From contig JANXTZ010000081.1 in assembly GCA_025352125.1 (NCBI GenBank), positions 34,297-98,296 of the forward strand: a DNA stretch of 64,000 nt, in the 5' to 3' direction. Of the stretch, positions 10,578 to 63,689 are shown piece after piece. The notes below the pieces were generated by a model. That model was not told the origin of the DNA, made no database searches, and saw only the letters and a program-made list of their open reading frames with translations. This DNA is from Deinococcales bacterium. GTDB taxonomy: Bacteria > Deinococcota > Deinococci > Deinococcales > JAAFIG01. A program made the translations under genes and the position numbers. How positions within the stretch are numbered: the first letter of the stretch is position 1; each line of letters opens with the position of its first letter.

Positions 10578-11494
10578 GTCGTGACCTCGAGTCGGCTGCG
10601 CAGGCGCAGCATGATGACCGCGTACAAGATCAGCAACATCAGCAGAATCACGCTGATGGCGGCGGCGTAACCATAATCGAGTTTGTTGTACGCCACCGTA
10701 AAAATATAACTCGAGGTGATCTGCGTGGCATCGGCAGGACCACCTCCGGTCATGACCCAGATCAAATCCGAGAAATTGGCAATCCAGACCGTTCGCAGCA
10801 GGGCGGTAATCACAATGGTTGGAGCGATATAGGGCAGGGTGATAAAACGAAATTGCTGCCAACTGCTCGCGCCGTCCATGTCGGCAGCCTCGTACATTTC
10901 TTTGGGAATGGCGGTCAGTGTGGCGAGCAAGGTGATGGCGAAAAAAGGAATGCCAAACCAGATGTTGGCAATAATCGGACCGATGAGCGCAATGCTCGGG
11001 TCAGCCAGAATGTTATCGGCATTGGGCAGCAAACCTAGTGCCGCCGCCCAGTGTGCCAGGGGACCAATGACCGGATTGAACAACCACGACCAGGTCAAAC
11101 CCGACAAAAAAGCCGGAACAGCCCAAGGCAGAAAAACCAGTGCCTGATACAACTTTTGCCCAGGAAACGGCGTGACCAGCAAAAGAGCCAAACCCAGCCC
11201 GAACAACAACTGAAACACCAAACTCGAGAACGTCCAAACCACGGTGTTGCGCAAGCTCAACCAGAAAATTGGGTCGTTAAACGCCTTGATATAATTTTCC
11301 AAACCCGCAAAACCATGGTTGAGCGGCTCGTAGACCACAAAATGGATAAAACTGTAATAAATCCCGATCAGCACCGGCACAAACAAAGTCAAGCCCAACA
11401 ACAACAAGGTTGGACTGACGTACAGATAAGGCTCGAGCAAGACCTGCAAGGCTCGAGGTTTGGGTTGTGGGGTGCGGGTGATGGTGGTCGCCAT
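10574..11494 (-). CDS. carbohydrate ABC transporter permease (MalF-like)
   Basis: Six predicted TM segments and the EAA loop EAADMDGASSWQQFRFITLP. Confidence 0.85.
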   Translation of the reverse strand: MATTITRTPQPKPRALQVLLEPYLYVSPTLLLLGLTLFVPVLIGIYYSFIHFVVYEPLNHGFAGLENYIKAFNDPIFWLSLRNTVVWTFSSLVFQLLFGLGLALLLVTPFPGQKLYQALVFLPWAVPAFLSGLTWSWLFNPVIGPLAHWAAALGLLPNADNILADPSIALIGPIIANIWFGIPFFAITLLATLTAIPKEMYEAADMDGASSWQQFRFITLPYIAPTIVITALLRTVWIANFSDLIWVMTGGGPADATQITSSYIFTVAYNKLDYGYAAAISVILLMLLILYAVIMLRLRSRLEVTT

Positions 11495-16617: not shown

Positions 16618-17865
16618 TTCCCGCATGGCGGCGCGAAGAATTTCGATGGTGTGAAGCACGGGCAGGTGATGCCCCAGTCGCTCGAGATGGGTTTTGAGTT
16701 GGGTCAAACATCCAATATTTCCGCTCGAGATGGCTTGTGCACCAGACTCGATCACGGCTCTGGCTTTGCGCATCCCAAGTTCCCTGGCAATTTCGGGTTG
16801 TTCAATGTTGTATGTTCCCGCCGAGCCACAACAAATTTCAGCATCGGTCAACTCGAGCAGCGTCAAATTTTCAATGCTCGAGAGTAAGCTTCTGGGTTGC
16901 ACTCGGACGCCTTGCGCATGAGCCAAATGACAGGCGTCGTGATAGGCAACTTTCAATGGATTCTCGAGTTTGAGGGGCGTGACCAAACCGAGTTCGGCTA
17001 AAAAAACGCTGACATCTTTGACCCGTGCCGCCAAGGCACTAGCCCTGATTTCTTCGGGTTCTCCCGCGAACAACAAACCGTACTCGTGAATGCCCGACCC
17101 GCAACCTGCCGCATTCGTGATGATCGCATCAACATCCTCTGGAAAAACGTTCAGATTTTTTCGGGCGAGCGCTCGAGCCTCCGATTGCTGCCCCGTGTGC
17201 ATCAGAATTGCGCCGCAACAGCCCTGGGACTTGGGTATCTCAACCTCAACCCCGTTTTTGGATAACACCTCGAGCGTCGCACGGTTGATTTCGGGCGCGA
17301 GCACCTGTTGGGCGCAACCCGCCAGCAGCGCCACCCGAGCACGTTTTTTGCCAACCGCAGGAACAAATTCTGGCAGTTCGTAAGTGCTTGGCAGCGCGTT
17401 TGGTAAAAGCTCGAGCATGGCTTGCATGGGTTTGGGTAGCAAAGTTTTGAAAGGCTTTCCAAAACGCCCCAAGCTTGCCGCCAACCGAAACCGCCTTGGG
17501 TGCGGCAAGGTGCTCGAGATCAAGATTTTCGTCAGGTTTTTCAACTCGAGTTTGTTGGTTTGATTTAACGCCCGAAACGGCGCGAGCAATTCGCCGTACT
17601 GAACCCCACTCGGGCAGGCGGTGACGCACGCCAGACAACCCAGGCAACGATCCACGTGAACACTCGCCTCCGCCATTGTCAGGTTTCCCTCGAGCACCTC
17701 TTTCATCAAGACAATTCGACCACGTGGCGAGTCCATTTCCTCGCCCAGCACACGATACGTTGGACAGGTCGGCAGACAAAAACCGCAATGTACGCAGGCT
17801 TCAACCGCCTCCGCCATTGCGGGTCCCTGAGCGCCGAATTTCTCGAGCGGGATGTCATGTTGCAT
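16606..17865 (-). CDS. glcF: glycolate oxidase iron-sulfur subunit
   Basis: Two ferredoxin-type clusters ([24 protein letters not shown]) plus cysteine-rich CCG domains. The start is chosen at [10 protein letters not shown], preceded by GGAGAGGA; the ORF extends to 17886. Confidence 0.9.
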
Positions 17866-18889
17866 TAAATTTCCTCTCCAGGTCAAAAGTGTTCAAAACC
17901 CGTTCGAGCAGCACGCCGCCGACTTGTTTTCCAAGCAACACTCGAGGGGTGTTGCCGCGCAATACCAAACCCGAAAGTTGAAGCTCGAGCAGGATCAAAT
18001 CCAGATTCTCGAGTGAATCCGTCCATTCCAGCCAAGCTAAATTGCCGCTCGAGATGTAACGCGTTCGTCCGTGTTCCAAAATTTTTGCCTCGAGTGTTGG
18101 GATTTTACTGGCGGTGAGGGGAATTTTTACCAGTGCCGCGTTTGGTACAACCCACAAAAATTCTCGAGCCTCACGCCAGATTTCAGTGTCGTCTCGCGTG
18201 ACTTGCCCTTCAATACCAACGAATTTTTGAAGGTTCTCGAGTCGGGTTTCCAGAGCATTAATCACGCCACCAATCCGAATCATCACCCGCGAGCCGAAAA
18301 CATCCAAGCATTCCAGGTCAAAGCTCGAGCCAGCCAATTTTTGCATGGTTTCCAGCGCGGTTTTCGGGGTGTCACACTCGAGTTGCAAGGTTGCCCAGGC
18401 TTTGGGCGCTGGAAAAACCTTGAAGGTCAGTTCGGTTATTACGCCAAACGTGCCCAGAGCGCCGCAATGCATTTTGGGCAGGTCAAATCCCGCAGCATTC
18501 TTCACAACCTTGCCACCGCCCCGCACAATCCCTCCCAGACCATCTATAAATTGTACCGCCAGCACAAAATCGCGCACGCCGCCAAAACGTTGCCGCCCAG
18601 AACCCGACAGACCAGCCGCCACCGTGCCGCCCAAGGTTGCGCCAGCCATCAAAAACGGTGGGTCGAACGGCAAATGCTGACCGTGCTCGGCAAGAATCTG
18701 GGCAATCTCAGAAACTCGAGTTCCCGCCAGCGCCGTGAAGGTGTACTCGCTCGGGTCGTACTCGAGCATCCCAGAAAGCTCGTGCATCTCGAGGTTTGCA
18801 ACACTGGAAAGTGCGGGTTTTGTGCCGCCGCCACGCACTTTGACAGAGGCGTTGGATTTGATGAAATCCTGAATTTCGAGAATTGTCAT
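17855..18889 (-). CDS. glcE: glycolate oxidase FAD-binding subunit
   Basis: FAD_binding_4-like domain, positioned between glcD and glcF. The start MTILEIQDF overlaps the upstream stop as ATGA. Confidence 0.85.
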
Positions 18890-19428
18890 GCCGTGTCTCC
18901 CAAAGTTCGGTACAACCGCGCCCGAACCCGATCCTCGAGCATTTCCTGCTCGAGACTCCAACCCCAAATTGGTTTGATTTGTGGGCGTTTGTGCGGTGTC
19001 AAAACCAGCAGTGTGTCCGTGATTTGCGCCAGTTGAAACATCAACATTGGTAACTTTGAAAGCTCCACCAAATGCAGCGCAAAACTACAGACAATCAGAC
19101 TGTAATTTCGTCCCTCGAGCACACCATTTGCAATGTCATCAAACGAGAATGGTTCGGCGTGTAAACCTGTGCGTTCAAAAAAAGCTTGACCTGTGTACGG
19201 GTCAATGCCCGAAACCCCTCCGCCAAGTTCTTGCAACACCAAGGTCGCCTCGCCACTGCCGCAAGCCAAATCCAGCACGTGTGAAAGTTCAAGTTTCCAC
19301 TCGAGCGACACGCGTTTCAGTAAACTTTGCAAAATGGTTTCATGCGGGTTGCGGTAACTCGAGCCAAACTGCTGGTAAAAGCCAGTGACGCCGTGTTCCT
19401 CGTAAGCGGGGCGGATGTCATCCATCAT
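18886..19428 (-). CDS. class I SAM-dependent methyltransferase
   Basis: Motif [13 protein letters not shown]. Both gene ends overlap their neighbours by 4 nt. Confidence 0.75.
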
Positions 19429-21438: not shown

Positions 21439-21933
21439 GTGCGCATGAACCAAGACCTGAAAATCATGTATGACCTCGTGCGTCGCACCCGCGAAGTGTT
21501 GTTCGAGTTTACCGAAAGCCTGCCAAACCAGATTTATACCCTCGAGCGACCCGATTTTGCCTACGGCAGCATTCGCAACATTCACGCCCACGTTGCCTTT
21601 TGCTACCTGGCTTGGATTGGTGTGGCACTGGGTTACAAACGCGAGGATTTGATTGTACCCGCCGAACAAATTTCGGATGCCACCGCCATGCGCGAACGGT
21701 TTGGGGTTGTGGACAAAATTGTGAACGAAGCCCTCGAGAAATTCACAACCCCAGACGAACCGCTCGAGTTTGAGCACCGTTCTGGAAACCTGAAATTAAC
21801 CCAGCGCTGGTTGCTGCTGCATCCGATCACCCACGAGTTTCACCACAAAGGGCAATTGCTGGCACTGGCACGGGTGCTCGAGCATCCATTGCCCGAAGGT
21901 GTGGACACGGATTTGGTGCTGCCGTTCGAGTGA
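21439..21933 (+). CDS. DinB-family (four-helix-bundle metalloenzyme-like) protein
   Basis: DinB-like length with histidines spaced as in the family (HAHVAF..., HPITHEFHHKGQ). Confidence 0.7.
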   Translation: MRMNQDLKIMYDLVRRTREVLFEFTESLPNQIYTLERPDFAYGSIRNIHAHVAFCYLAWIGVALGYKREDLIVPAEQISDATAMRERFGVVDKIVNEALEKFTTPDEPLEFEHRSGNLKLTQRWLLLHPITHEFHHKGQLLALARVLEHPLPEGVDTDLVLPFE

Positions 21934-22009
21934 ATTGTAGTCTCACCTTCAAAATTAAGTGATTAGAATAATGTAAAGTTGATGAGCATTTTAAAAACTT
22001 GGGGGAAAT

Positions 22010-22867
22010 ATGAAACATCAACTGCAAAAAGCGGTATTGGTCGCCATCAGTCTGTCAACATTCGCAGCCATCAGCACATTTTCTGGCACAATTGCCCTGG
22101 GAGACCAAACTAAAAACTTTGCCCTGTGCGGCATCTGCAAAGGCGCAAACCATTACGTCGGATTTGCCCGCCAAAACAACGCTCGACTGGGCACAGCGCA
22201 AGAATCAATACCCGCACAAGTGCTCCGAACCTACCCAGGCTTAAGCGATGCCAAAGAAATTCTGACCGCTCGAGGGCGTACCGCCGTTCGGGTTGAACAA
22301 GAAAATGGAAACTTCGTGATTTCCGAACACCGCCTTGAGACACTGCGCATTGGCAACCTGCGCAAATCAGAAACCATGATCGCCCAAGTCACCGACCAAA
22401 TTGGTAGTGCCGAAGCTCGAGTTCAACTCGTTTGGGGCGACACCATCAGCATTCGTTCCAAAACCCTCGCCCGTGGCACACCAGTCACCCTGACCCTCAA
22501 CCGAAGTACAGGCGGTTTTGGAAATCCTGCCAGCCAAGGCGCGTATTACAACGTTCAGAGTGAAACCTACATTGACGGTGTTGCCATCACCGACCTGGCT
22601 TTTGGCTTGAAACGCTACCCTGGCGAGGGACAAAAAGACCAAGCGACTGGTAAAGACAAACTGGATTACAAAATTCAAACCAAAGTCGGACAAACCATTC
22701 GACTCGAAGGTTCATTGGCTGTGACCGACGGTGTAAAATCGGCTTTGAAATCACAACAGATTCTGAACGGCGCGGATTCTGTCGTGTACACCATCGCCAT
22801 TGATAACGCTGATGCTTGCGGTCAATCGAGCAGTGGTCAAATGGATGCAGGAACGTGCAAACCATAA
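22010..22867 (+). CDS. secreted hypothetical protein
   Basis: Signal peptide MKHQLQKAVLVAISLSTFAAIS. No recognisable domain. Confidence 0.55.
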   Translation: MKHQLQKAVLVAISLSTFAAISTFSGTIALGDQTKNFALCGICKGANHYVGFARQNNARLGTAQESIPAQVLRTYPGLSDAKEILTARGRTAVRVEQENGNFVISEHRLETLRIGNLRKSETMIAQVTDQIGSAEARVQLVWGDTISIRSKTLARGTPVTLTLNRSTGGFGNPASQGAYYNVQSETYIDGVAITDLAFGLKRYPGEGQKDQATGKDKLDYKIQTKVGQTIRLEGSLAVTDGVKSALKSQQILNGADSVVYTIAIDNADACGQSSSGQMDAGTCKP

Positions 22868-22894
22868 AGCTTATTTAAAATCAATATGGTCTTG

Positions 22895-22926
22895 ACTGGC
22901 ATGGGCGCTCGAGTGTCCATGCCAGT
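22895..22926 (+). terminator. putative intrinsic terminator
   Basis: 10-bp perfect stem actggcatgg / ccatgccagt with a 12-nt loop containing CTCGAG. The T-tract (ttatt) is weak. Confidence 0.45.
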
Positions 22927-23067
22927 TATTGTCAGTACGGATTTGGTATTGCTGTTGGAGTGAATGGGATACTCGAGTTCGCTGCAAAAATTGCGTGATG
23001 CTGCGTTTAATGTAAAAAACCGCTTTAAGTTGGCGCGATATTAATTTGAGAAGGTGAAGTGAATCCT

Positions 23068-23832
23068 TTAATTGAATGTAGATCGCTCTGTGTCGTTGGG
23101 TTTTAATATTCCTGATTTGCTGTTCAGTTGAAGTAATTTATTCCAATTGATCTCATCATCTTTACAGTAATCAATCAGGAATTCTCGAGTAAAACGAGTG
23201 TACAATTTTGTCCGCTCCTGTTCATATTCCTCGTTATGGCGCTTGGCTTCAAAACCAACAGGTTCGATCAAATCAATGTACAGTTGTTCACTGCCAGACA
23301 AAAAATGCCAAAAGGCTTGTCCGGTTAATTTCAGGTATTCGCCATTGTTCACAGGGGCTGTTGCACCATAGCAAATTCCTAAAACAGGCTGTACCTCACC
23401 AATATTTTTTGCTTGTTTGAGTACCCTGACAGCGGTTTTAAAGTTCGTTTTTAGGGCTTTATACTGACTCGAATTGCCCCAGTTTGGACCAGATTTGATG
23501 CTGACCACGTATCTTACGCCATCCCGAGCAAATTCGAGGTCTGCTCCCGTCACACCAGATTTCAAACCATCTGAGGTTTGTTGTAACACGAAAATAGCTA
23601 AAGCCTCAAGAAAATCACCAAAATGTTTTTCTTCTGAACTCGACAAAAAAGCGTCCAGCAAACTTGAAACCAGTGTGGTTGGAGCGAGATTTTTAGCACG
23701 AAACAAGTACGGATTTTTACGCTTTAACAAACCGATCAATTTTAGTTTTTTGAGTCCCTCGAGTCGCGCATTGTGAAAAGTACTGATATGGGCATTGACG
23801 TAGAGTGCCACCTGTTCGAGATTAACTGCCAT
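23068..23832 (-). CDS. putative type II restriction endonuclease (specificity unknown)
   Basis: Co-oriented with the DNA methyltransferase, whose 3' end its start overlaps by 11 nt (ATG at 23832, preceded by GAGGAA). PD-(D/E)xK-like arrangement E...DLEF...VVSIK. AT-rich relative to its flanks. Family not assignable by eye. Confidence 0.6.
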   Translation of the reverse strand: MAVNLEQVALYVNAHISTFHNARLEGLKKLKLIGLLKRKNPYLFRAKNLAPTTLVSSLLDAFLSSSEEKHFGDFLEALAIFVLQQTSDGLKSGVTGADLEFARDGVRYVVSIKSGPNWGNSSQYKALKTNFKTAVRVLKQAKNIGEVQPVLGICYGATAPVNNGEYLKLTGQAFWHFLSGSEQLYIDLIEPVGFEAKRHNEEYEQERTKLYTRFTREFLIDYCKDDEINWNKLLQLNSKSGILKPNDTERSTFN

Positions 23833-24685
23833 GAATTTCCTCAAATAAAGGTGAAATATCGGTTTTTTCTGCATTTAGGCGTTGTTGTGCGACTTCAATG
23901 TACTCAAGTTTAAGTTCTGTACCAACATAATATCGTCCGAGGCGATGAGCGGCGATAGCGGTTGTGCCACTGCCCATGAATGGGTCCAAAACAACATCCC
24001 CTGGTGAACTAAAGAGTTTGATGAACCATTCTGGTAAACCAATGGGAAATGCGGCGCTGTGATTACGATTACCGCATTCAGTAGCCAGATGGATGACATT
24101 GGTCGGATAAACAAGATCGCGTCCAACCCAGTTTGAAATGTTTTTACCAAAACCACTGCCAACTTTGGATTCGTCGCGGCGTTTGTCAGTTTTGCTCAAA
24201 TTTTTTAAACGGCTCTCTGCCCAATCACCAACTGGAACACGGACAGCATCTTGGTTCATTTTAAACTGACGCTCTTTTGTAAAATGTAAACAACGCTCCC
24301 ACGCATCACGAAATCTATTTGACCATTTCCCTGGAAACGAATTACGCTTATGCCACATGTATTCTTCGGTCCAAAGCCAGCCTTGTTTTTTTAATTCGAG
24401 AATCAACTCGAGTACATAAGTGTGTCGTTCTCCAGCGACAACTCGTTCTTTAATATTTAAAACAAACGAACCTGTCGGTTTGAGAACACGATGTAATTCA
24501 GCCGCAATAGGCATAAACCAGGCTGCATACTCGTCGGGATGAACTCCACCGTAAGTATTTTTACGCTGATCGGCATAGGGTGGTGACGTAACGATCAAAT
24601 CTATGCTGGAATCTGGTAAATGCTGTAAAGTAGTGCAGGCATCGCCTTGAAAAATCTGGTTGTGCCAAGTGATATCAGAAGTCAT
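23822..24685 (-). CDS. beta-class N4-cytosine/N6-adenine DNA methyltransferase
   Basis: Catalytic motif IV TSPPY near the N-terminus and AdoMet motif I DPFMGSGTT near the C-terminus. This is the beta-class order of the N6_N4_Mtase family; SPPY is more typical of N4C enzymes. Confidence 0.9.
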   Translation of the reverse strand: MTSDITWHNQIFQGDACTTLQHLPDSSIDLIVTSPPYADQRKNTYGGVHPDEYAAWFMPIAAELHRVLKPTGSFVLNIKERVVAGERHTYVLELILELKKQGWLWTEEYMWHKRNSFPGKWSNRFRDAWERCLHFTKERQFKMNQDAVRVPVGDWAESRLKNLSKTDKRRDESKVGSGFGKNISNWVGRDLVYPTNVIHLATECGNRNHSAAFPIGLPEWFIKLFSSPGDVVLDPFMGSGTTAIAAHRLGRYYVGTELKLEYIEVAQQRLNAEKTDISPLFEEIHGS

Positions 24686-24739
24686 GTTTGTATTCTGCCA
24701 TGTTCGGAATGAAATGTCGCGTTACTTGAATAACCGCCG

Positions 24740-25861
24740 TTAATCCGCCGCCATCTCGAGGTCATAAACCTTCAACTCGTCATAAAACGCGTTGCGTTCC
24801 ACTGCCACACGCCCAGCTTTCTTGATCAAATCCACCATCTTCTGGGTGGTCAACCCAAGCGGGCTAACCGCGCCTGCGGCATGTGCGATGTGCTCGTCAA
24901 TGATCGTGCCGTCAATGTCGCTGACGCCCCAGTCCAGCGCGACTTGCACCAGGTCGCTCGAGATCATGACCCAGTAGCCTTTGACGTGATCAAAATTGTC
25001 CAGGTAAATCCTCGAGACTGCCAAATTGCGCAGGTCGTCAATGCCTGTCGTAAATTCGGTTTTGCCCAGGTTGAAGGCGAGTGCGTTCGCGTCGGGTTGA
25101 AACGCGAGCGGGATGAAACTGTGAAAGCCGCCCGTTTCGTCTTGCAGCGTGCGCAACCTGTCAATGTGGTCTAGCCGTTCCTCGAGCGTTTCGATGTGTC
25201 CGTAAAGCATGGTGGCGTTGGTGCGAATGCCCAAACTGTGGGCTTCTTTGTGAATTCTGAGCCAGTCATCGGCGCTAACCTTGCGTTTGGCAATCTCGAG
25301 CCGCACTCGGTCAGCAAAAATCTCTGCCCCGCCCCCTGGCATGGCGGCAAGTCCTGCGGCTTTCAGTTCGGTCAAGACCTCGAGCGTACTTTTTTTGGCA
25401 ATGTGGCTGAGGTGCTCGATTTCGGCGGCGGTGAAGGCTTTGACTTGCAAACCAGGAAATTCGGCGTTCAAAGCCCGCACCATGTCAGGGTAGTAACTCC
25501 AGGGGCGGGTCGGATGATGCCCGCTGCTCATGTGCAGTTCTTGCAAGCCTGGTTCGTACTTCTCGCGGACATGGGCGACCACATCTTCAACGCTGTAATC
25601 CCAGGCTCGAGCCTCGTTTTTGTTGGCGGCAAAGGCGCAGAACGTGCAACCGACGTAGCAAATATTGGTGAACTCGAGGCGCATGGAGTGCACAAAATAG
25701 GTTTTGTCACCGTTCTTGCGCTCGCGCACCACGTTCGCCAGCCTCGAGAGGGTGTTGAGGTCGTGCGTGTCGAATAAAACCATGCCCTCGCTAAAATTGA
25801 GGCGTTCACCCGCCATGACTTTGGCGGCGATAGGCTCGAGTTTGGGGTCCAGAATCTTCAT
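24740..25861 (-). CDS. futalosine-pathway radical SAM enzyme (MqnE/MqnC family)
   Basis: Radical-SAM cluster motif CYVGCTFCAF and overall MqnC/MqnE-like sequence. The start is taken at MKILDPKLEP. I cannot separate MqnE from MqnC by eye. Confidence 0.8.
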   Translation of the reverse strand: MKILDPKLEPIAAKVMAGERLNFSEGMVLFDTHDLNTLSRLANVVRERKNGDKTYFVHSMRLEFTNICYVGCTFCAFAANKNEARAWDYSVEDVVAHVREKYEPGLQELHMSSGHHPTRPWSYYPDMVRALNAEFPGLQVKAFTAAEIEHLSHIAKKSTLEVLTELKAAGLAAMPGGGAEIFADRVRLEIAKRKVSADDWLRIHKEAHSLGIRTNATMLYGHIETLEERLDHIDRLRTLQDETGGFHSFIPLAFQPDANALAFNLGKTEFTTGIDDLRNLAVSRIYLDNFDHVKGYWVMISSDLVQVALDWGVSDIDGTIIDEHIAHAAGAVSPLGLTTQKMVDLIKKAGRVAVERNAFYDELKVYDLEMAAD

Positions 25862-25915
25862 ATCCTCACTGTAGTCCTTCAGGCATGGGTCAGGTGTCTC
25901 GAGTAGAATGTTGAG

Positions 25916-26785
25916 GTGTCGGATTCCAACGCCCATGCCTGGTTTCAAATGCTGGTGCACCATGCCAGCGATTTGATTGTGGTGCTCGAGGAAAACGGTG
26001 TTGTTCGCTATGCAAATACTGCCAGTTTAAAACTCTTAGACCTGTCACCTGAAGCGCTTGTTGGGCAGCATTTTTGGTTTGATGTGCTGGGGTTAACGCA
26101 CCAAGACATGGAACTGGTTCAAAGCTCGAGCGAACCGTTTGAATTGCTCTTGGGTGACCGCGATCTGGTCTTGCAAGTCTCGAATTTACTGCACATTCCA
26201 GAGTTGCGCGGCGTGGTGGTCAACGTGCGTGACATGACCTACAGCAAAAACCTCGAGCGCAGTTTGCGTTACCAAGCACTTCATGATCCCCTTACGGACC
26301 TGCCAAACCGTCGTTTGTTCGAGGCGGAACTGACCCGAGCCTTGCCGCCCGAAAGTTTGCTGGCGGTGTTGTTCATTGATCTGGACGGTTTTAAGCAAGT
26401 GAATGACACATACGGTCACGATCTTGGCGATGATTTGCTGGTGCAGGTCAGCCAGAGAATGCAGTTTTGCCTGCGCGAAACCGACACTTTGGCGCGTATC
26501 GGCGGCGATGAATTCACGGTTTTACTCGACCCAATCGAGAATTTAGATGAAGCCGTGCAGGTTGCCGAACGGATTATTTCAGTGATTCAACCCGCGTTTC
26601 ATCTCGAGCAATTTGAGGTTTTTGTTGATGCCAGCATTGGTGTGGTGCTCGAGGAAGATGGCATTGGCAGCGATGAGATTGTGCACCGTGCCGATATTGC
26701 CATGTACCAAGCCAAACGCAGGGGCAGAGGGCAGGCTGTTGCGTTCAATGCGGACATGCTCACAGATACTTTTACAATCCATTGA
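25916..26785 (+). CDS. PAS-domain diguanylate cyclase (GGDEF)
   Basis: N-terminal PAS-like region. Active site RIGGDEF, with an I-site RETD five residues upstream. Confidence 0.9.
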   Translation: MSDSNAHAWFQMLVHHASDLIVVLEENGVVRYANTASLKLLDLSPEALVGQHFWFDVLGLTHQDMELVQSSSEPFELLLGDRDLVLQVSNLLHIPELRGVVVNVRDMTYSKNLERSLRYQALHDPLTDLPNRRLFEAELTRALPPESLLAVLFIDLDGFKQVNDTYGHDLGDDLLVQVSQRMQFCLRETDTLARIGGDEFTVLLDPIENLDEAVQVAERIISVIQPAFHLEQFEVFVDASIGVVLEEDGIGSDEIVHRADIAMYQAKRRGRGQAVAFNADMLTDTFTIH

Positions 26786-27587: not shown

Positions 27588-27885
27588 CAACTATCGTAGC
27601 CAACCGCGTTCAGAACGTCGTGTATCTTCAACAGAAGCCACTTCGATAACATCTTCTGGTAGTGGCTTACTTTAGAATGTTTTTTCAGCAATATCCAAAT
27701 TATACCGATACACAAACAACTTCAACCTTGCCACATGCAAATCCCAACACTTCGAGAAACTCAACGTCTTACGCACAAACTGCCCGTTACGCCTCGAGTG
27801 TTATCACCACACGCAACCCAACCCTGGGCGGGATGCTTACGGCGCACTGCCGTATGACTTTGAACTTGGAGCTTGCAGAGAATTC

Positions 27886-28041
27886 GTGACCAACCTGCCG
27901 AGTGAAGATTTAATCCAGCAAACTGCGTATTACATTTGGTTGCGAAACGGACGCCCCGAAGACCGCGAACTCGAGCATTGGAATGAGGCATTTGTTAGTT
28001 TGTGTGTCAGTTCTGGACGAATCCCAAACACTATAAAATAG
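27886..28041 (+). CDS. small DUF2934-like protein (51 aa)
   Basis: Not in the ORF track because it is shorter than 60 aa. GTG start. The sequence AYYIWLRNGRPEDRELEHWNEA matches the DUF2934 pattern AYxxWxxxGRPxGxxxxxWxxAE. Confidence 0.5.
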   Translation: MTNLPSEDLIQQTAYYIWLRNGRPEDRELEHWNEAFVSLCVSSGRIPNTIK

Positions 28042-28057
28042 CGAATGCAAGTTCATT

Positions 28058-28579
28058 GTGAACATAAAGCAGAATGGGGTGGTTATGCTACCGCTAGACG
28101 ATGATCGATGGCAGCAATTGACAACGTTTTTTAAAGAACCGAAAGACATTCCAAAAATTCTTGAAGAATGGTTAGCATCTGTTGGGTTCGACCAAAACGA
28201 AGCCAAGATTTACTATGACATTTTGTTCGATATTTTTTTACATCAAACGACAATCACAAATGTAGCATTTGCCATCGTACCATGGCTCTTACATGTTTGC
28301 AGAACGCGTGATACAAGATTGCGAGCTACGTACTTGACGGATATTGCTCTGGTAGAAGCGAACAGACTCACCCACGGTGTCTACTACAACCGTGAAGGCA
28401 CTGAAAAATACCCAAATTGGTTAATGTCTGACTACATGCAGGCAATCGCAGAAGCTTGTACTTTTGTAGATGATGTTATTGAAGCAGAACTCGATGAAGA
28501 TAGAAAACAACTCTTGGTTGCCATGAAACCTGCATTGTTTGGAAATCCTGAGTTGGCATGGTCACAGTGGTATCCATAG
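28058..28579 (+). CDS. hypothetical protein (orphan, AT-rich)
   Basis: 173-aa ORF in AT-rich DNA that contains no CTCGAG at all. No domain recognised. Confidence 0.5.
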   Translation: MNIKQNGVVMLPLDDDRWQQLTTFFKEPKDIPKILEEWLASVGFDQNEAKIYYDILFDIFLHQTTITNVAFAIVPWLLHVCRTRDTRLRATYLTDIALVEANRLTHGVYYNREGTEKYPNWLMSDYMQAIAEACTFVDDVIEAELDEDRKQLLVAMKPALFGNPELAWSQWYP

Positions 28580-28647
28580 AACTCGAAAATAAAAGATTTC
28601 AGATTAAACTTTGGAATTCACCAAGTTTTAAACATCTGCATACCCGC

Positions 28648-29868
28648 TCAATCCAAAAACAATGACACAACCTCACCAAACGGGAAACCCTCAATCGCCA
28701 AACCTCCAGGCGTGACCACCCATAACACGGGCAGTTTGGGAGGCTCGAGTGGAAAATCACCAAAACCGTCAGTCAAGTACACGATCACACCGTGCTCGAG
28801 TTCCACCAGGTCAGGTTTGATGGCTTCAAAAAATGGTCTGAAATCCGTGCCGCCACCGCCTTGGGGCGCGGGAATGTCGCCGTCCACCTCGAGCGCGAAT
28901 GGTCCGTAGGCGGTTGCGTCGGCGTAGTAGAGGGTGCAGCACACGTGCGGGTACGCCCGAAGGATGCCACGCACCTCTGAAAGTAACGCTGTGATTTGCG
29001 GTTCGTCGATTGAACCGCTGGTGTCCACGCACAAGAACACCTGCAAGCTCATGCCCGACAGACTCTCGAGGTAGTACCCGCGTCCGATCATGCGGCGGTC
29101 AAATTCTTCAAAATCGGTGGGCGTGTGCGACAGGTAACGCCACAAGGTGCTGCGCCAGTCGAGGCGTGAAGGCTCGAGGCTGCCGAACTCGCGGGTTAAC
29201 CCTGCCGGAAGCTTGCCCTGATTTGAACCCCTGGCGACGCTGGCGGCTTGCGCCATCGCCTTGCGCCAGTGCGCCTCGAGCGCCTTGCGTTGTTCCTGGG
29301 AAAGTTGCCCGCCAGGACTGCCCGCTTTGGCATCCCCTTCTTTTGAACCATCCCTGCCCTCACTCGCAGGCTCGAGCAAATCTGGATGCTCGAGTTGATG
29401 CTTTTCCTGGTCTTCGGCTTGCTTGGCTAAAATAGCGTAAGCCTCTTCGGCGCTGTGATGCTCGAGATCGGTGTCGCGGATCGTGTTTTCTGGAAGTTCA
29501 AAACCGTTCTGCCAGAGCACACCATTGACAACAATATCGGCGGCAATGTTCCAGCCTTTGGGGTTGCGGGTGCTGCGCCTTGAAACGTGAAGCAGCGCGG
29601 CGTGCAAAACTTCATGCAACATCACGGCATCAATTTGAATTGGTGACAGGCTCGAGATGAATGCAGGGTTGTAAATCACGTCGCGTCCGTCGGTGGCGGC
29701 GGTGGGCAGGTCAAAACTGGCTTTGAACCCCGCGTACAACGCCAGGGTCGCAAAAAATGGGGATCGCATTCGCAGGCGCAGCAACGAACCGCTGACCAAT
29801 TTTTCAGTTTTCGCAACAAGCTCGAGCTGCATTTGGGGCGTTAAAGCTGGAGATTCTGGACTGCTCAT
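28648..29868 (-). CDS. predicted zinc-metallopeptidase + von Willebrand factor A domain protein (DUF2201/COG3864-like)
   Basis: HExxH motif (MLHEVLHAALLH) in the N-terminal half and the MIDAS motif DTSGS in the C-terminal VWA-like half. The start ATG at 29868 overlaps the upstream stop as ATGA. Confidence 0.8.
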   Translation of the reverse strand: MSSPESPALTPQMQLELVAKTEKLVSGSLLRLRMRSPFFATLALYAGFKASFDLPTAATDGRDVIYNPAFISSLSPIQIDAVMLHEVLHAALLHVSRRSTRNPKGWNIAADIVVNGVLWQNGFELPENTIRDTDLEHHSAEEAYAILAKQAEDQEKHQLEHPDLLEPASEGRDGSKEGDAKAGSPGGQLSQEQRKALEAHWRKAMAQAASVARGSNQGKLPAGLTREFGSLEPSRLDWRSTLWRYLSHTPTDFEEFDRRMIGRGYYLESLSGMSLQVFLCVDTSGSIDEPQITALLSEVRGILRAYPHVCCTLYYADATAYGPFALEVDGDIPAPQGGGGTDFRPFFEAIKPDLVELEHGVIVYLTDGFGDFPLEPPKLPVLWVVTPGGLAIEGFPFGEVVSLFLD

Positions 29869-52474: not shown

Positions 52475-54199
52475 ATGCTTGAAAACACGCTCCTTTTTGG
52501 CGTGATCGCCTTGATTCTGGCGTTGTTGCTCTCGAGCTTGCTGGCACATTCCAGGGCATCAACCCGTAAACAAGTGATCGACGCCACGCAAGCCGCCAAG
52601 GCGCTCTCGGACTTTAACCGTGCCCTCATCCACGAAACCAGCCTGCCGGTGGTGCTGGACCGAATCACCAGCGCCTTGACTGGAAATTTGGGTTTCAATA
52701 AAGCCAGAATGCACCTGCTTGACGGTGTTTCACGCGAGATGCGAGCGCCATCGGGCGAAACCTCGAGCGACCCAGAACGAATTGCTTTGATGCGTGAGGC
52801 ATTGTTTGCCCCGCCGGAGGGCATGGAAGTCCCGGGCGTGATCGTGCTGCCAATTCTTGCCGCCACCAAGGCAGGCTCGAACGCACGCTGCTGGCTCGAG
52901 CCAGAGAGCAAATGTAAGCTGACCCCAAAAATAACCAAGTCTGAGCGCTTCAACACCTGCCTCTCCTGCGAGCATTTTGCCGCATTCGGCGTGCTCGAAC
53001 TCGAGTATCAAGGCAAACGTCACGACATCGCCAGCCTGACCGATTACGTCCGCGCCAGCTCACTCGCCGTCTCGAACACCCGCATGTACCAGAGCGAACA
53101 GCAAGCCCGTCAACTTGCCGAACAACGCCTGGAGCGCGAACTCAAATTAAAATCCGAAAACACCCAACTGCTCGAATCGCTCGAGGGTGAACGCGCCAGG
53201 TTGGACGCGACCATCGAACACCTGTCGGAGGGCATCGTGCTCCTGGAAGACGACCAAGCCCAAGCCAACGCGGTGGCTCGAGCCTGGCTGGGACTGCCCA
53301 AAGATTTCAGGGTGCAAGATTTGCCGACCCAGTTACGCGCCACCCTCGCGCCCGGGCATTCGGATTTGGTCATCAACAACACGCACCTGCAAGTGATTAT
53401 CAGCCGTCAAGAAAACCGTACCGTCCTGGTCTTGCGCGACCTGGAACGCTTCGGCGCAATCGAGCGCACCAAAGCCGAGCTGCTCAGCCGCGTCTCACAC
53501 GAACTGAAAACCCCGCTGACCAGCATTCAGGGATTCACCAGTTTGCTGATTTCAGGCGGCGCGGGGGAGCTGACCGACGACCAGTACGAGTTTTTGACCA
53601 CCACCTACAATGCCAGCAAAAACCTCGAGCAGACCGTGCAAAACCTGATGGACGCCTCCAAACTCGAGGCAGGACTGTTCGAGATCAACTGCAAACCAAC
53701 CCGCCCCAACTTTGAAGCCATGCTCGAGCGCTTTGTGCAACGCGCCGACGAACAGGGCATTTTCATGGACGTTCATCTGGTGACCTTGCCGGTCGTGAAT
53801 GTGGACGCCATGCGCCTCGAGTTGGTGCTGGCAAACCTGCTCTCGAATGCTTTACGATTCACCAGCAAGGGTGGCCGCATTGGCGTCACCACCAGCCTTG
53901 AAGCCGGAAACCTGCAAGTCAGCGTGACCGACAACGGTATTGGCATGAGCGATTACCAACTGGCGCACCTGTTTGAACGCACCAGTTCGGGTTTGCAAAC
54001 CGTTGAGAATGGTCACAACCTCGAAGGCATTGGACTGTCATTGTACGTCAGCAAAGCCATCATCAACGCCCACGGGGGCGAAATCACGGCAAGCAGTCAA
54101 CCAGGCATTCAAACCCAGTTGCAATTTCGCGTGCCGCTCGAGCAACCATTTGAGTTGACACTGGCGCGTGAAGACAAAACACCGACCTTGGTGGGCTAA
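52475..54199 (+). CDS. sensor histidine kinase
   Basis: N-terminal TM segment, GAF/PAS-like middle region, H-box SRVSHELKTPLTSI, and HATPase N/G boxes (LSNALRFT, DNGIGM, GIGLSL). Confidence 0.9.
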   Translation: MLENTLLFGVIALILALLLSSLLAHSRASTRKQVIDATQAAKALSDFNRALIHETSLPVVLDRITSALTGNLGFNKARMHLLDGVSREMRAPSGETSSDPERIALMREALFAPPEGMEVPGVIVLPILAATKAGSNARCWLEPESKCKLTPKITKSERFNTCLSCEHFAAFGVLELEYQGKRHDIASLTDYVRASSLAVSNTRMYQSEQQARQLAEQRLERELKLKSENTQLLESLEGERARLDATIEHLSEGIVLLEDDQAQANAVARAWLGLPKDFRVQDLPTQLRATLAPGHSDLVINNTHLQVIISRQENRTVLVLRDLERFGAIERTKAELLSRVSHELKTPLTSIQGFTSLLISGGAGELTDDQYEFLTTTYNASKNLEQTVQNLMDASKLEAGLFEINCKPTRPNFEAMLERFVQRADEQGIFMDVHLVTLPVVNVDAMRLELVLANLLSNALRFTSKGGRIGVTTSLEAGNLQVSVTDNGIGMSDYQLAHLFERTSSGLQTVENGHNLEGIGLSLYVSKAIINAHGGEITASSQPGIQTQLQFRVPLEQPFELTLAREDKTPTLVG

Positions 54200-60575: not shown

Positions 60576-60610
60576 AAAAAAAGCATCTCGAGTATTGAGG
60601 CTCGAGATGC
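60576..60610 (-). terminator. intrinsic terminator of bamA (also closes the convergent lysE-like gene)
   Basis: 10-bp perfect stem gcatctcgag / ctcgagatgc with an 8-nt loop. A7 on the plus strand gives U7 on the bamA transcript. Confidence 0.85.
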
Positions 60611-60638
60611 CAATTGCTATTTGCTATGCGCTATTTGC

Positions 60639-63287
60639 TTAGAACGGAAAGCCCAACCTGAAGTGAAACTTGCCACCTGGATTCCAGGGACTAAACGCGT
60701 AATCAAGTCGAATGGCGGGCAGTTGGAACGAACCAAAACCCAGATTGATCTGAACGCCCAAACCAAAACCAAATTGCAAACCCTCAGGAATGGCAACACC
60801 ACTGCGTGAAGCGCGGAACTCCACCCCAGGACCGCCGCCCCAAGCGTTACCGAAATCCAGGAAGGCAATGCCCAACAAACCGTAGGTGAACGAGGTTTGC
60901 AAACCGAAATCGTAACGAAGCTCGAGCGATCCCGTGTAAAACAACTGCCCACGAAGGTCGTTAAAATCGTAACCGCGCAGGGTGTAATCCTCAAGTTGCG
61001 AACTGCCACCGATGCGGAACAAACGGTTGGCGGGCGCATCACCGACAATAAAGCCCGTGTTGAACCTAAACGCGAGGGCGAATTTGCGATCATCGCCGAT
61101 GTTAAAATTACCGTTTTGATCCCAACCAAAACCCAAGTAGGTGCGGAAACCAACCGTGGTTTGCTCCCACGACAAAGGTTTTTCGGTGCCTGAACCAATG
61201 CCTGCCGTGCCAAAACCGTAACCGACTGTGCCAGTGACCAACACGCCTTGGGTTGGGAAATCTTGACGGTTTTTGGTGCTGAACTGACCCGCAACCTGGG
61301 TGAAAACCGTCAGGTTATCTGGTGCATTTACTTTGAGTACGTTTGGATCGACATTCACCTGGTCGGCTTGATATGGCAAGGTCGGATTTGTCGCGCCAGG
61401 CAATTTGGTGTCGTCTTTCTCGAGATAATTGGATTCGTAACTGAAATCAAAACTGACCCGAACACTAAAATTTTCACCGACCGGTCTTGACACGCTCAAT
61501 CCAAATCCTGTGGAACGCCCAGAGTACAATCGTGCCGAATTTTTGGTCGAATCTGTAACGACGTAATTTGGAATCGGGTTTCCCGCACTGACGCTGGTTG
61601 AAATGCTGAACGTCACCTCGGTGCGCGTCTGGCGGAAGTCCAGAAAGTCAATGTCCAACCACGGAATGGTGTATGACAAGCCACCCGAGAAATTTTGACC
61701 TGCATTGTTTGGACCACCCTGAATACCCAGGTTGATACGGTGATTCTGACCCCACAGGTTTTGCTCGGTGACGCTCAGTTGCCCCGCAAAACCATCCAGG
61801 GTGCTGTAGGTGATGCCAGGCACAATGTTGCCCGACGATCCCTCCTCGAGTCCCAAGACCAAAATGATCTCGTAAGGCTTGCTGGGATCAGGGATTTTCA
61901 CGCCCACCTGCAAATCTTTTAACAAACCCAGTTGTTGAATGCGTCCAAAACTGGCTCGCAACGCCGTGATGTTGAACAAACCACCCACTTTGGGCAATTC
62001 GCGGGTGATGACACGGTTGTCGGTACGGTGGTACCCGCGCCAGTTGATCTCAAAACCGATCAGCTTTTGTTCCTGAATACTCACGGTGTAAATGCCGTCG
62101 CTGAAACCAAATTTGGGTTCTGGCACAATCCCGTAACCCGCCTCCTGGTACACGTCGTTGATCGCCGAGAAGTCCTCTTCGGCAAGTTTGGGGTTGTAGG
62201 TATCACCAATTTTTTGCTTGAACCGCGCCAGCAAGACGCTGCTGGGTACAGCCGTGTTGCCCTGAATGTTGATGCTGGTGATTGGACCCGCCGCCGCATC
62301 CTCGAGCGTCAGGGTCACGATCAGGGTGTCCTCGCCTGCGGGTTCGATCTTGACCCCGATTTGCTTGTCACGACCTTTGGCGAGACGTCCAATGTCTTTT
62401 AAAAGCGTGTCGTAATTGAAAAAATCACCCGTTTTGAGGCTGAGTTCGTCTGGATTCACACCGAGCGCGGTGGCGTCAACGGCGGCAATCTTGTACTCGA
62501 TAATTCGAATGGTCAACACGCCGTCAACCAGTTTGCTGAGTTCAAAACTCGGACCGCTGTAACGGTAACCCAAGGCAGTGTATTTGGCTCGGACGGCTTG
62601 GGCGGCGCTTTGGTAGACATCGGCTTTGAACGCCCCACCGTCAACCATCGACTTGTACAACGCCTTGATGTCGGCGACGGGCACAAGGGTCGCGCCGACC
62701 ACCTCGACTGACTTGATGCTGGCGGATTCGGTGACGTTAAAGGTCACGGTTTGCTTGCCGTCTTTGATCTCACCAAGCTCGAGTTTGACTTCAGGCTCGA
62801 AGGGCAACACCTGACGGTAGGCTTGCCCAACGGCGGCGGCAGCCTCTTTGAGCTTGGTTTCGTTGATGGTCACCCCGATGCCAATGTTGAAGTTCTTATC
62901 CAGGAATTCGACCAGTTGCGCACTTGGCACAATCGCATTGCCGGTAAAGATCACCTCGCCGATGACGGGGTTGGATTCGACGGCAATCACCACCACATTG
63001 CGAGAATCCCGAACCTCAAGTGTGACCTTGACGGTTTTAAAGAACCCGAGCGCCAGCAACTGATTCTGAATCTCTTCGACTTTGACATTTTCAATTGGAT
63101 CACCGACAGAAATGTCGATGGTGACTTTGACCAGACCTTTGATCGTGTCGTCATCCGTGCCGGTCACGATGATCTCATCGATAGAACCTGTCGGCACGGG
63201 TTGGCTTTGAGCGAATGCCGTACCCAGGCTCGAGGTCAACCCGAACCAGCACAGCAAGAGGGCAGCGATATGACGGATTTTAGGCAT
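60639..63287 (-). CDS. bamA: outer-membrane protein assembly factor, Omp85/BamA family
   Basis: Signal peptide MPKIRHIAALLLCWFGLTSSLGTAFAQ after GGAGGA. Multiple POTRA-like repeats, a C-terminal D15 beta-barrel, and a terminal ...FRLGFPF. Confidence 0.85.
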   Translation of the reverse strand: MPKIRHIAALLLCWFGLTSSLGTAFAQSQPVPTGSIDEIIVTGTDDDTIKGLVKVTIDISVGDPIENVKVEEIQNQLLALGFFKTVKVTLEVRDSRNVVVIAVESNPVIGEVIFTGNAIVPSAQLVEFLDKNFNIGIGVTINETKLKEAAAAVGQAYRQVLPFEPEVKLELGEIKDGKQTVTFNVTESASIKSVEVVGATLVPVADIKALYKSMVDGGAFKADVYQSAAQAVRAKYTALGYRYSGPSFELSKLVDGVLTIRIIEYKIAAVDATALGVNPDELSLKTGDFFNYDTLLKDIGRLAKGRDKQIGVKIEPAGEDTLIVTLTLEDAAAGPITSINIQGNTAVPSSVLLARFKQKIGDTYNPKLAEEDFSAINDVYQEAGYGIVPEPKFGFSDGIYTVSIQEQKLIGFEINWRGYHRTDNRVITRELPKVGGLFNITALRASFGRIQQLGLLKDLQVGVKIPDPSKPYEIILVLGLEEGSSGNIVPGITYSTLDGFAGQLSVTEQNLWGQNHRINLGIQGGPNNAGQNFSGGLSYTIPWLDIDFLDFRQTRTEVTFSISTSVSAGNPIPNYVVTDSTKNSARLYSGRSTGFGLSVSRPVGENFSVRVSFDFSYESNYLEKDDTKLPGATNPTLPYQADQVNVDPNVLKVNAPDNLTVFTQVAGQFSTKNRQDFPTQGVLVTGTVGYGFGTAGIGSGTEKPLSWEQTTVGFRTYLGFGWDQNGNFNIGDDRKFALAFRFNTGFIVGDAPANRLFRIGGSSQLEDYTLRGYDFNDLRGQLFYTGSLELRYDFGLQTSFTYGLLGIAFLDFGNAWGGGPGVEFRASRSGVAIPEGLQFGFGLGVQINLGFGSFQLPAIRLDYAFSPWNPGGKFHFRLGFPF

Positions 63288-63689
63288 TGATTGACATCCT
63301 CCAACGTGTCGCGCCACAAAATCAATTCTGTGGTTCGCGTTGCTCGAGCGTCCCCGAGCGGGTACCATAAAACCATAAATACTGAGCGCATAAAACATTT
63401 TGTGAAATTGCTTGGATTCATCAAGTTCTTTACCGGTGAGATGTTTCCAAGTTTCCATTCACGGGTTCAGGCGAGAAGAATCAAAATCAATCCACTGGAA
63501 TTCCTTTAAAAGTGTCGCCCATTCCCGTATTGGAGCGGTGAAGCACCCGTGAGAACCCTGATTTGAAACTTAAGCAACCCTTAACCCTGTGCTGCTCGAG
63601 TTTTAGCAGTTTGATGTTAACTGGTTTTGTGATACAAAAGCGACTTTTGGCAATACAAGACGCCCTGCGCCTGGGCTAAGATGTGACCC

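Follow-up and report, generated by a model that had tools for sequence, protein, structure and literature searches.

A strain-specific restriction–modification module of predicted GGWCC type in a variable slot of a CTCGAG-rich Deinococcales genome

In a 64-kb stretch of DNA from an uncultured Deinococcales genome (the whole of which is hereafter called the window), a type II restriction–modification (R-M) gene pair is located at a site where the closest relatives carry unrelated genes. Considered as a whole, we are fairly confident that this pair represents a self-contained type IIP R-M module of predicted GGWCC-type specificity that circulates horizontally, occupies a swap-prone slot, and has become partly adapted to its host. 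The R-M pair itself is routine, being one of thousands of members of a module family distributed across phyla. Its presence here offers a natural experiment, wherein the same conserved genes inside and outside of CTCGAG-rich genomes reveal the gain of CTCGAG sites in situ, including in newly arrived DNA. The module would have three functional parts, namely a short leader, a methyltransferase (MTase) gene, and a translationally coupled endonuclease gene, which are located as follows together with the adjoining unique DNA.

23822–24685, minus strand: MTase gene, 287 amino acids (aa), beta-class amino-DNA methyltransferase.
23068–23832, minus strand: endonuclease gene, 254 aa, type IIP, PmeII/EcoO109I family.
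24686–24744, minus strand: leader that travels with the module, with a conserved ACATGGCAGAATACAAAC directly before the MTase ATG.
22966–23067, no strand: module-side unique DNA 3′ of the endonuclease gene, forming the left edge of the R-M-specific segment.

The R-M-specific segment, as delimited by breaks in homology with related genomes, spans positions 22966 to 24739 (1,774 bp). The two genes are adjacent and co-oriented, carry N6_N4_Mtase and RE_EcoO109I domains in the layout of a type II R-M system, and overlap by exactly 11 nucleotides (nt) (ATGGCAGTTAA). This agrees with a preliminary description made from the sequence alone, which had reported a type II pair with a beta-class MTase and an 11-nt overlap; both open reading frames (ORFs), the motif order, and the exact overlap were found. 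The pairing of MTase and endonuclease is kept at at least eight other loci. A Shine-Dalgarno-like GAGGAA precedes the endonuclease start at 23832, which is the choice of gene callers on two identical metagenome contigs. An alternative in-frame ATG lies upstream at 23874, and endonuclease homologs are 245 to 254 aa long.

Copies of the module on four other contigs (L036 to L039) are the nearest relatives of the one in the window, and three of them help to define the leader. Its 58 nt are 84% identical to the DNA upstream of the MTase gene in L036 and L037 (flanking DNA farther out is unrelated), and it is conserved with L036, L037, and L039, ending in ACATGGCAGAATACAAAC followed by ATG. About 7 nt separate the MTase start codon from a −10-like hexamer, CAGAAT (CATAAT in L039), and the leader has no evident Shine-Dalgarno element. 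It is therefore suggested that the MTase mRNA may be leaderless. A scan for promoter and terminator consensus sequences around the module yielded nothing useful.

The MTase matches the Pfam family N6_N4_Mtase (PF01555) with E = 3.8e-47 (161.5 bits versus a cutoff of 26.7) and the PADLOC model MTase_II with 1e-53. Its motif IV (TSPPY, at about aa 33–37) precedes motif I (DPFMGSGTT, at about aa 233–241), which is the order of beta-class enzymes. The best match in the PDB is M.PvuII, an N4-cytosine MTase (1.8e-33 over residues 8–269). The N6-adenine enzymes MboIIA, RsrI, and CcrM are matched as well, and homolog annotations are split between adenine-specific and cytosine-N4-specific. Judged from the SPPY motif and the M.PvuII match, N4-methylcytosine (m4C) is most likely the product. 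The enzyme shares with M.PvuII-like beta-class N4-cytosine MTases the N6_N4_Mtase domain, the placement of motif IV before motif I, and the S-P-P-Y/F form of motif IV. In contrast, its target-recognition region and partner endonuclease are different. M.PvuII recognizes CAGCTG and is paired with R.PvuII and a C protein; there is no C protein at the window module.

The endonuclease matches the Pfam family RE_EcoO109I (PF14511) over profile positions 2–198 of 198 (E = 1.1e-70, 237.9 bits versus a cutoff of 22.5), and its homologs carry the NCBI name “PmeII family.” Some homologs are co-matched by PF09520 (RE_TdeIII), and searches of the endonuclease against NCBIfam and PADLOC gave no match. An AlphaFold2 model (mean predicted local distance difference test score of 84.6) was compared with known structures by Foldseek. 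The sole strong match was EcoO109I (1wtd/1wte; E = 8e-8, probability 1.00, template modeling score 0.60–0.64), with only 15–18% identity, and the next match had E = 0.015. Thus, the predicted fold resembles EcoO109I over its full length, whereas sequence identity is low and the (D/E)XK position of the window endonuclease reads S-I-K. The residues that are invariant in the family are all present, including E67, E68, D98, and K113. The arrangement of helix-borne acidic residues (E67/E68), D98, and an x-x-K at K113 approximates the spacing of E123, D147, and K163 in AvaII (PMC7337904).

AvaII (G^GWCC) and EcoO109I (RG^GNCCY) share a common catalytic core and DNA-binding mode (PMC7337904), and PmeII corresponds to GGWCC (PMC8112702). 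From the PmeII name, the EcoO109I Pfam family, the fold match, the kinship of AvaII and EcoO109I, and the layout of invariant residues, we infer that the endonuclease most likely recognizes GGWCC or another site with a GGNCC core, with protection by m4C. Both genes are intact and under strong purifying selection. The ratio of nonsynonymous to synonymous substitution rates (dN/dS) is 0.019 for the MTase gene relative to the L036 copy and 0.058 for the endonuclease gene, and values for the latter span 0.06 to 0.13.

The locus of the pair was compared with those of 16 relatives, all uncultured Deinococcales metagenome-assembled genomes, retrieved through a flanking MqnE-like gene with 85–98% identity. 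Judging from isolate names, they appear to be mostly from glacier-fed streams. Two core genes flank the slot.

21439–21933, plus strand: DinB-family core gene (Pfam DinB; synteny), left anchor of the variable slot.
24740–25936, minus strand: radical-SAM MqnE/CofH-like core gene (Pfam Radical_SAM and CofH_C), whose stop codon is the right slot boundary.

The R-M pair is absent at this locus from all five of the closest relatives (L003, L004, L005, L014, and L017; 95–98% identity in MqnE). On the right, the MqnE stop codon (24740–24742) is the precise end of homology. On the left, it ends at the DinB stop (approximately 21937) in L003, L004, and L017, and runs to 22965 in L005 and to 22882, the contig end, in L014. 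The cargo of the slot differs in each close relative and is AT-rich throughout, with a G+C content (GC) of 0.39 to 0.44. Because the pair is missing from five of five relatives, the boundary is exact, and each relative carries different cargo, the pair is a horizontally acquired accessory insert and a strain-specific occupant of a hypervariable slot. It thus has the traits of a genomic islet, namely presence/absence polymorphism, conserved flanks, and atypical composition. The horizontal acquisition proposed in the preliminary description is borne out at the level of the locus.

The cargo found in the relatives consists of ORFs of unknown function, ORFs resembling toxin and antitoxin genes by eye, and one large unplaced ORF. 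Those resembling DUF433 antitoxins are located at 10716–11207 in L004, 7149–7496 in L005, and within 1660–2326 in L017, where an adjacent ORF resembles a DUF5615 PIN-type toxin. Addiction and defense modules seem to gather in the slot between MqnE and DinB. No integrase or transposase ORFs were found in positions 21900–24800, and the only repeat is a duplication of the DinB 3′ end that bounds a neighboring orphan gene cassette. Because no integrase or transposase is present, the module probably arrived at the slot by replacement through the conserved flanks.

Homologs of the two proteins number in the thousands, with approximately 70–75% identity for the MTase and 52–64% for the endonuclease, and their hosts include Chloroflexi, Thermomicrobiales, Ktedonobacteria, Planctomycetes, and Bacteroidota. 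The M-then-R order is found again at unrelated loci of various hosts as well as on plasmids. Small mobilizable plasmids of gammaproteobacteria (such as NZ_CP030758.1 and NZ_AP022470.1) carry the genes in the same order and with the same overlap (67–68% identity for the MTase and 44–46% for the endonuclease). These plasmid copies adjoin mobilization genes, whereas the window copy is chromosomal and has no mobility genes nearby. Across Chloroflexi and the gammaproteobacterial plasmids, MTases that are 67–75% identical to the one in the window are paired with the same endonuclease family. In one outgroup host (L044, 10875–11607), the endonuclease gene is split into ORFs of 112 and 121 aa while the MTase gene is intact, which is a case of endonuclease decay that leaves an orphan MTase.

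The nearest copies are 96% (L038), 81% (L036 and L037), and 67% (L039) identical in nucleotide sequence and reside at loci different from that in the window. The flanks on their contigs have 4 to 6 CTCGAG per kb and no GGCC, which groups their genomes with that of the window. Thus, the recent acquisition proposed in the preliminary description holds for the locus but not for the clade, given that every one of these nearest copies lies on a CTCGAG-rich contig and that all seven Leu-Glu pairs of the window copy are within one change of CTCGAG, as described below. The module has already resided within the CTCGAG-rich clade, and only its presence at this locus is new. In GC, the L036 and L039 copies resemble their flanks, unlike the window copy, as would fit a recent transfer of the latter from a clade member of lower GC.

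These results permit a proposal for how the module operates. The MTase would protect the host sites, and the endonuclease, a predicted PD-(D/E)XK enzyme, would cut unmodified incoming DNA. Cleavage at GGWCC or another GGNCC-core site is expected to leave 5′ overhangs of 3 nt. The M-first gene order and the 11-nt overlap could favor methylation before restriction. The module would circulate among Chloroflexi, other phyla, and small mobilizable gammaproteobacterial plasmids, as well as within the CTCGAG-rich Deinococcales clade. The low GC and scarce CTCGAG sites of the module would then stem from incomplete adaptation to this genome, with the host drive already acting on Leu-Glu pairs. A strain-variable restriction activity of probable GGWCC type would be useful to consider for genetics in uncultured glacier-stream Deinococcales.

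Several observations weigh against this account. A scan for the sigma-70 consensus revealed no promoter in the leader. The endonuclease, used as a single sequence and as a 24-member profile, found nothing in the PDB up to E = 10, such that its link to EcoO109I exists at the level of the fold only, and AvaII is not among the top 50 Foldseek matches of the model. PmeII and AvaII have 5-methylcytosine MTases as partners (PMC8112702), unlike the beta-class N4/N6 enzyme encoded here. Although GGWCC is depleted to 0.38 of expectation in the window, to 0.24–0.36 across the clade (being absent from two relatives), and to 0.34–0.57 in the other-phylum hosts of the module, the underrepresentation extends to GGSCC, GGCC, and CCWGG, and for GGWCC it does not exceed in the window what is seen in relatives without the pair at their loci. 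Moreover, three of the 41 GGWCC sites in the window lie inside the R-M genes (23486, 23983, and 24368), a density of 1.9 per kb compared to 0.6 per kb elsewhere in the window. The relatives were sampled around this locus only, and the module may be present elsewhere in their genomes.

Because other GC-rich palindromes are also depleted, GGWCC depletion lends the predicted site only circumstantial support, and we rejected motif avoidance as a basis for assigning specificity. The L036 and L037 copies of the module have four GGWCC sites each, and their flanks have none.

Avoidance of several palindromes is extreme in the window. GGCC occurs once (at 53873) compared to about 348 sites expected from a Markov model, and several hexamers are missing altogether, including CCGCGG (22.5 expected), CGATCG (19.9), CGTACG (10.8), CTGCAG (7.2), and AGATCT (5.4), as well as CAGCTG, GTCGAC, GGATCC, and TGGCCA. 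Among the relatives, GGCC is absent or occurs once or twice in the closer ones and is much more frequent in L006 to L010, a pattern that suggests strain-group-specific restriction pressure. The 21 kb of L010 (JANYHH010000112.1) contain no GGWCC (26–67 expected) and one CCWGG (38–67 expected), and the 8.4 kb of L007 also lack GGWCC. These two genomes probably carry systems specific for GGWCC and CCWGG, or have been under long-term pressure from such systems.

The composition of the pair differs sharply from that of the window. As the preliminary description had noted, the pair is AT-richer than its surroundings: the GC of positions 23068–24685 is 0.422 compared to 0.529 for the window, which places the pair in the lowest 0.4% of same-size windows. 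GC at third codon positions (GC3) is 0.36 to 0.40 in the R-M genes and about 0.6 to 0.7 in core genes, and Leu codons in the R-M genes are of the AT type (TTA plus TTG, 58%). The window as a whole contains 395 CTCGAG sites compared to about 11 expected from dinucleotide shuffles. The R-M genes contain exactly three, and only 1.4% of same-size windows have three or fewer. These sites are the following.

23184–23189, endonuclease gene (site 1): frame 1, ACT CGA GAA, Thr-Arg-Glu; absent from the L036, L037, and L039 copies.
23758–23763, endonuclease gene (site 2): frame 0, Leu24-Glu25; CTTGAG in L036 and L037, CTCGAG in L039.
24407–24412, MTase gene (site 3): frame 0, Leu92-Glu93; TTGGAA in L039.

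The count of three and the first two positions match those originally given, and the third site begins one nucleotide later than had been stated (24406). That the motif is still more frequent in the pair than expected by chance also proved correct, since three sites compare to a compositional expectation of approximately 0.27 (Poisson P = 0.003). The neighboring core genes are indeed rich in the motif, but the 8 to 10 per kb proposed for them is somewhat high, with 7.2 per kb in the flanks and a window mean of 6.2 per kb.

Within the window, CTCGAG is largely a matter of one dipeptide. In-frame Leu-Glu pairs account for 202 of the 337 CTCGAG sites in coding regions, and core-gene density spans 1.0 to 12.6 per kb, tracking Leu-Glu content. 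Because density follows Leu-Glu content, raw CTCGAG density is a weak marker of foreignness. We rejected its use as a stand-alone score and replaced it with the fraction of Leu-Glu pairs that are encoded as CTCGAG, a composition-independent measure that is 2 of 7 in the R-M genes compared to 200 of 270 elsewhere (Fisher p = 0.017); a count for core genes gives 203 of 270. Low GC as the sole cause of the low motif count was likewise rejected. Other cargo in the slot has 1.9 to 8.6 CTCGAG per kb at the same GC as the R-M pair, including 6.8 to 8.6 sites per kb at GC 0.42 to 0.44.

Two other regions of the window stand out in a similar manner. The only other place with three or fewer CTCGAG per 1.6-kb window is at 60600–61600, inside a gene for a POTRA-domain outer-membrane protein (60639–63458, 939 aa). 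This core gene is of normal GC and is motif-poor because it has few Leu-Glu dipeptides; five of its seven Leu-Glu pairs are CTCGAG. A second AT-rich stretch (27656–28647; GC 0.427) has two CTCGAG and adjoins the largest CTCGAG-free gap in the window (27970–28744). It includes an ORF of 173 aa (28058–28579) with no Pfam or PADLOC match, and synteny with all relatives ends next to it, at 27655.

The variation among core genes might be taken to favor another explanation, in which the pair is ancestral at the locus and has been lost from the relatives, with its AT-richness and low CTCGAG content resulting from selection or gene constraints. R-M genes are generally AT-rich, in keeping with this explanation. 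We nonetheless regard it as highly unlikely. All five close relatives lack the pair and share the same sharp boundary at the MqnE stop codon, each with different, unrelated cargo, and the module resides at other loci in L036, L037, and L039. Moreover, the GC3 difference is too wide for a long-resident gene, and the L036 and L039 copies do agree in GC with their flanks.

The preferred reading, in which the module was acquired and is adapting to its host, is supported by a comparison of CTCGAG sites between copies. In a codon alignment, the conserved Leu-Glu positions that read CTCGAG are mostly not the same from copy to copy, and the sites differ from the other copies by single synonymous changes (CTT/CTC and GAA/GAG). 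The states of Leu-Glu pairs are as follows.

Outgroup hosts (4 copies): CTCGAG at 0 of 21 Leu-Glu pairs; 5 one change away; 16 two or more changes away.
CTCGAG-rich hosts (3 copies): CTCGAG at 10 of 22; 7 one change away; 5 further.
Window copy alone: CTCGAG at 2 of 7; 5 one change away; 0 further.

The clade and outgroup copies differ in the proportion of Leu-Glu pairs that are CTCGAG (Fisher p = 0.0005), and all seven pairs in the window copy are CTCGAG or within one transition of it, compared to 5 of 21 in the outgroup copies (Fisher p = 0.0007). Thus, acquired genes gain CTCGAG in situ, through synonymous point substitutions in their Leu-Glu codon pairs. Within the R-M genes, CTC makes up 71% of the Leu codons before Glu compared to 14% of other Leu codons.

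These same data bear on the possibility that the pair has only just entered the clade from outside, in which case its CTCGAG sites would be chance occurrences or first gains and motif density would date the transfer directly. The GC of 0.42 and the AT-type Leu usage are far from those of the host, and the MTase is 73–75% identical to Chloroflexi proteins, as a fresh import would predict. However, we consider this possibility unlikely given that the closest copies are all from CTCGAG-rich contigs, that every Leu-Glu pair is at or one transition from the motif, that CTC is strongly preferred before Glu, and that the three sites exceed the compositional expectation.

A corresponding bias extends over the whole window. 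CTC is used for 14% of Leu codons in general and for 80% of those before Glu, the share of GAG increases from 37% to 84% when Leu precedes, and the Leu-Glu dipeptide itself is 2.3-fold enriched (270 versus 119 expected). The CTCGAG drive in the window acts at the DNA level, is context-specific, and reshapes proteins.

This behavior parallels that proposed for HIP1 (GCGATCGC) in cyanobacteria, with another motif and in another phylum. In both cases, a hyper-abundant palindrome arises in situ by substitution, and its scarcity together with odd codon usage flags xenologs. The CTCGAG motif of the present clade of Deinococcota is different in that it is carried overwhelmingly by Leu-Glu pairs and has no associated MTase identified. 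The preliminary description had proposed that CTCGAG accumulates with residence time and could serve as a clock. In-situ gain is supported (10 of 22 versus 0 of 21), but such a clock is not a new idea, since accumulation of HIP1 copies with residence time has been stated explicitly (PMC3025956). In the present case the clock is also noisy, as density varies with Leu-Glu content and differs widely between slot cargoes of the same GC. We found no published description of CTCGAG hyper-abundance in our literature searches.

An m4C modification at GGWCC has been seen in marine metaepigenomes, and in 2022 it was without a matching MTase in REBASE (PMC8919816). We tentatively propose, as a conjecture that may well fail, that the module is the missing enzyme pair behind this modification. 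As part of the same conjecture, because the module occurs in hosts with and without the CTCGAG drive, the state of its conserved Leu-Glu codon pairs (CTCGAG, one change away, or further) could, once calibrated, show how long acquired genes have resided in the clade, giving a direct rate for the CTCGAG drive.

Since the pair includes a DNA MTase and is embedded in CTCGAG-rich DNA, it has also been considered whether this enzyme targets CTCGAG, or the TCGA core of that motif, and has a causal part in the genome-wide excess, for example through methylation-linked biased mismatch repair. No other DNA MTase was found in the 64-kb window, consistent with the preliminary description. A six-frame motif scan returned one other ORF with a [DNS]PP[YFW] motif, a DPPF ORF at 17855–18967 that was rejected as a second MTase candidate because it is an FAD-binding glycolate-oxidase subunit. 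Among the PDB relatives of the MTase (2.7e-21) is a beta-class enzyme from Thermus, 2zie, which we take to be TCGA-specific. Furthermore, HIP1 has been associated with MTases that recognize the HIP1 core (PMC4390886).

Other evidence contradicts this link between the MTase and CTCGAG. The characterized members of the partner endonuclease family cut GGWCC or RGGNCCY, and four other-phylum hosts of the module have no CTCGAG excess, with 14 sites compared to 21–42 expected in 77 kb. All 16 relatives are CTCGAG-rich (4.2–6.95 per kb across GC 0.46–0.62), with 1158 sites pooled compared to 53 expected, which is a 22-fold excess. Five of these loci are syntenic and lack the pair, and pair-less relatives have 6 to 7 CTCGAG per kb. 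In other words, the motif is clade-wide, whereas the module is strain-variable. Neither protein has a Pfam match to an XhoI-type family. Adenine methylation is reported for XhoI-type enzymes, whereas TSPPY and the nearest relative, M.PvuII, indicate cytosine-N4 methylation in the present case. We therefore judge a CTCGAG- or TCGA-directed MTase with a causal role to be extremely improbable. It is very unlikely that the window MTase explains the CTCGAG signal, and thus its driver, such as an orphan CTCGAG MTase or biased repair, should be sought elsewhere in the genome.

The DNA to the left of the R-M-specific segment belongs to a separate variable cassette of 1,030 bp, which has the following features.

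22010–22867, plus strand: orphan gene, 285 aa, with a signal-peptide-like N-terminus; lineage-restricted, in a separate variable cassette.
21907–21944, plus strand: DinB-3′-end repeat, copy 1, the true 3′ end of the DinB gene.
22937–22974, plus strand: DinB-3′-end repeat, copy 2, bounding the orphan cassette; R-M-specific DNA begins right after it.

The direct repeat is degenerate (38 nt, 79% identity, with similarity extending to about 70 nt by eye), and the duplicated DinB-3′ fragment is also present in L005 and L017. The suggestion in the preliminary description that the orphan gene might belong to the same insert as the R-M pair is contradicted by the relatives. The gene is present without the R-M pair in L005 (89% aa identity) and L014, is absent from L003, L004, and L017, and has its own repeat-bounded cassette. 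Its product has no match in Pfam, NCBIfam, or PADLOC. Only 12 homologs (60–92% identity, no domains) were found in a database of 5.8 billion proteins, which suggests a lineage-restricted family. Just 3′ of the orphan stop codon, a near-perfect hairpin at 22895–22926 (16+16 nt, 88% complementary) is centered on the CTCGAG at 22908. Located inside the duplicated DinB 3′ end, this hairpin may act as a terminator.

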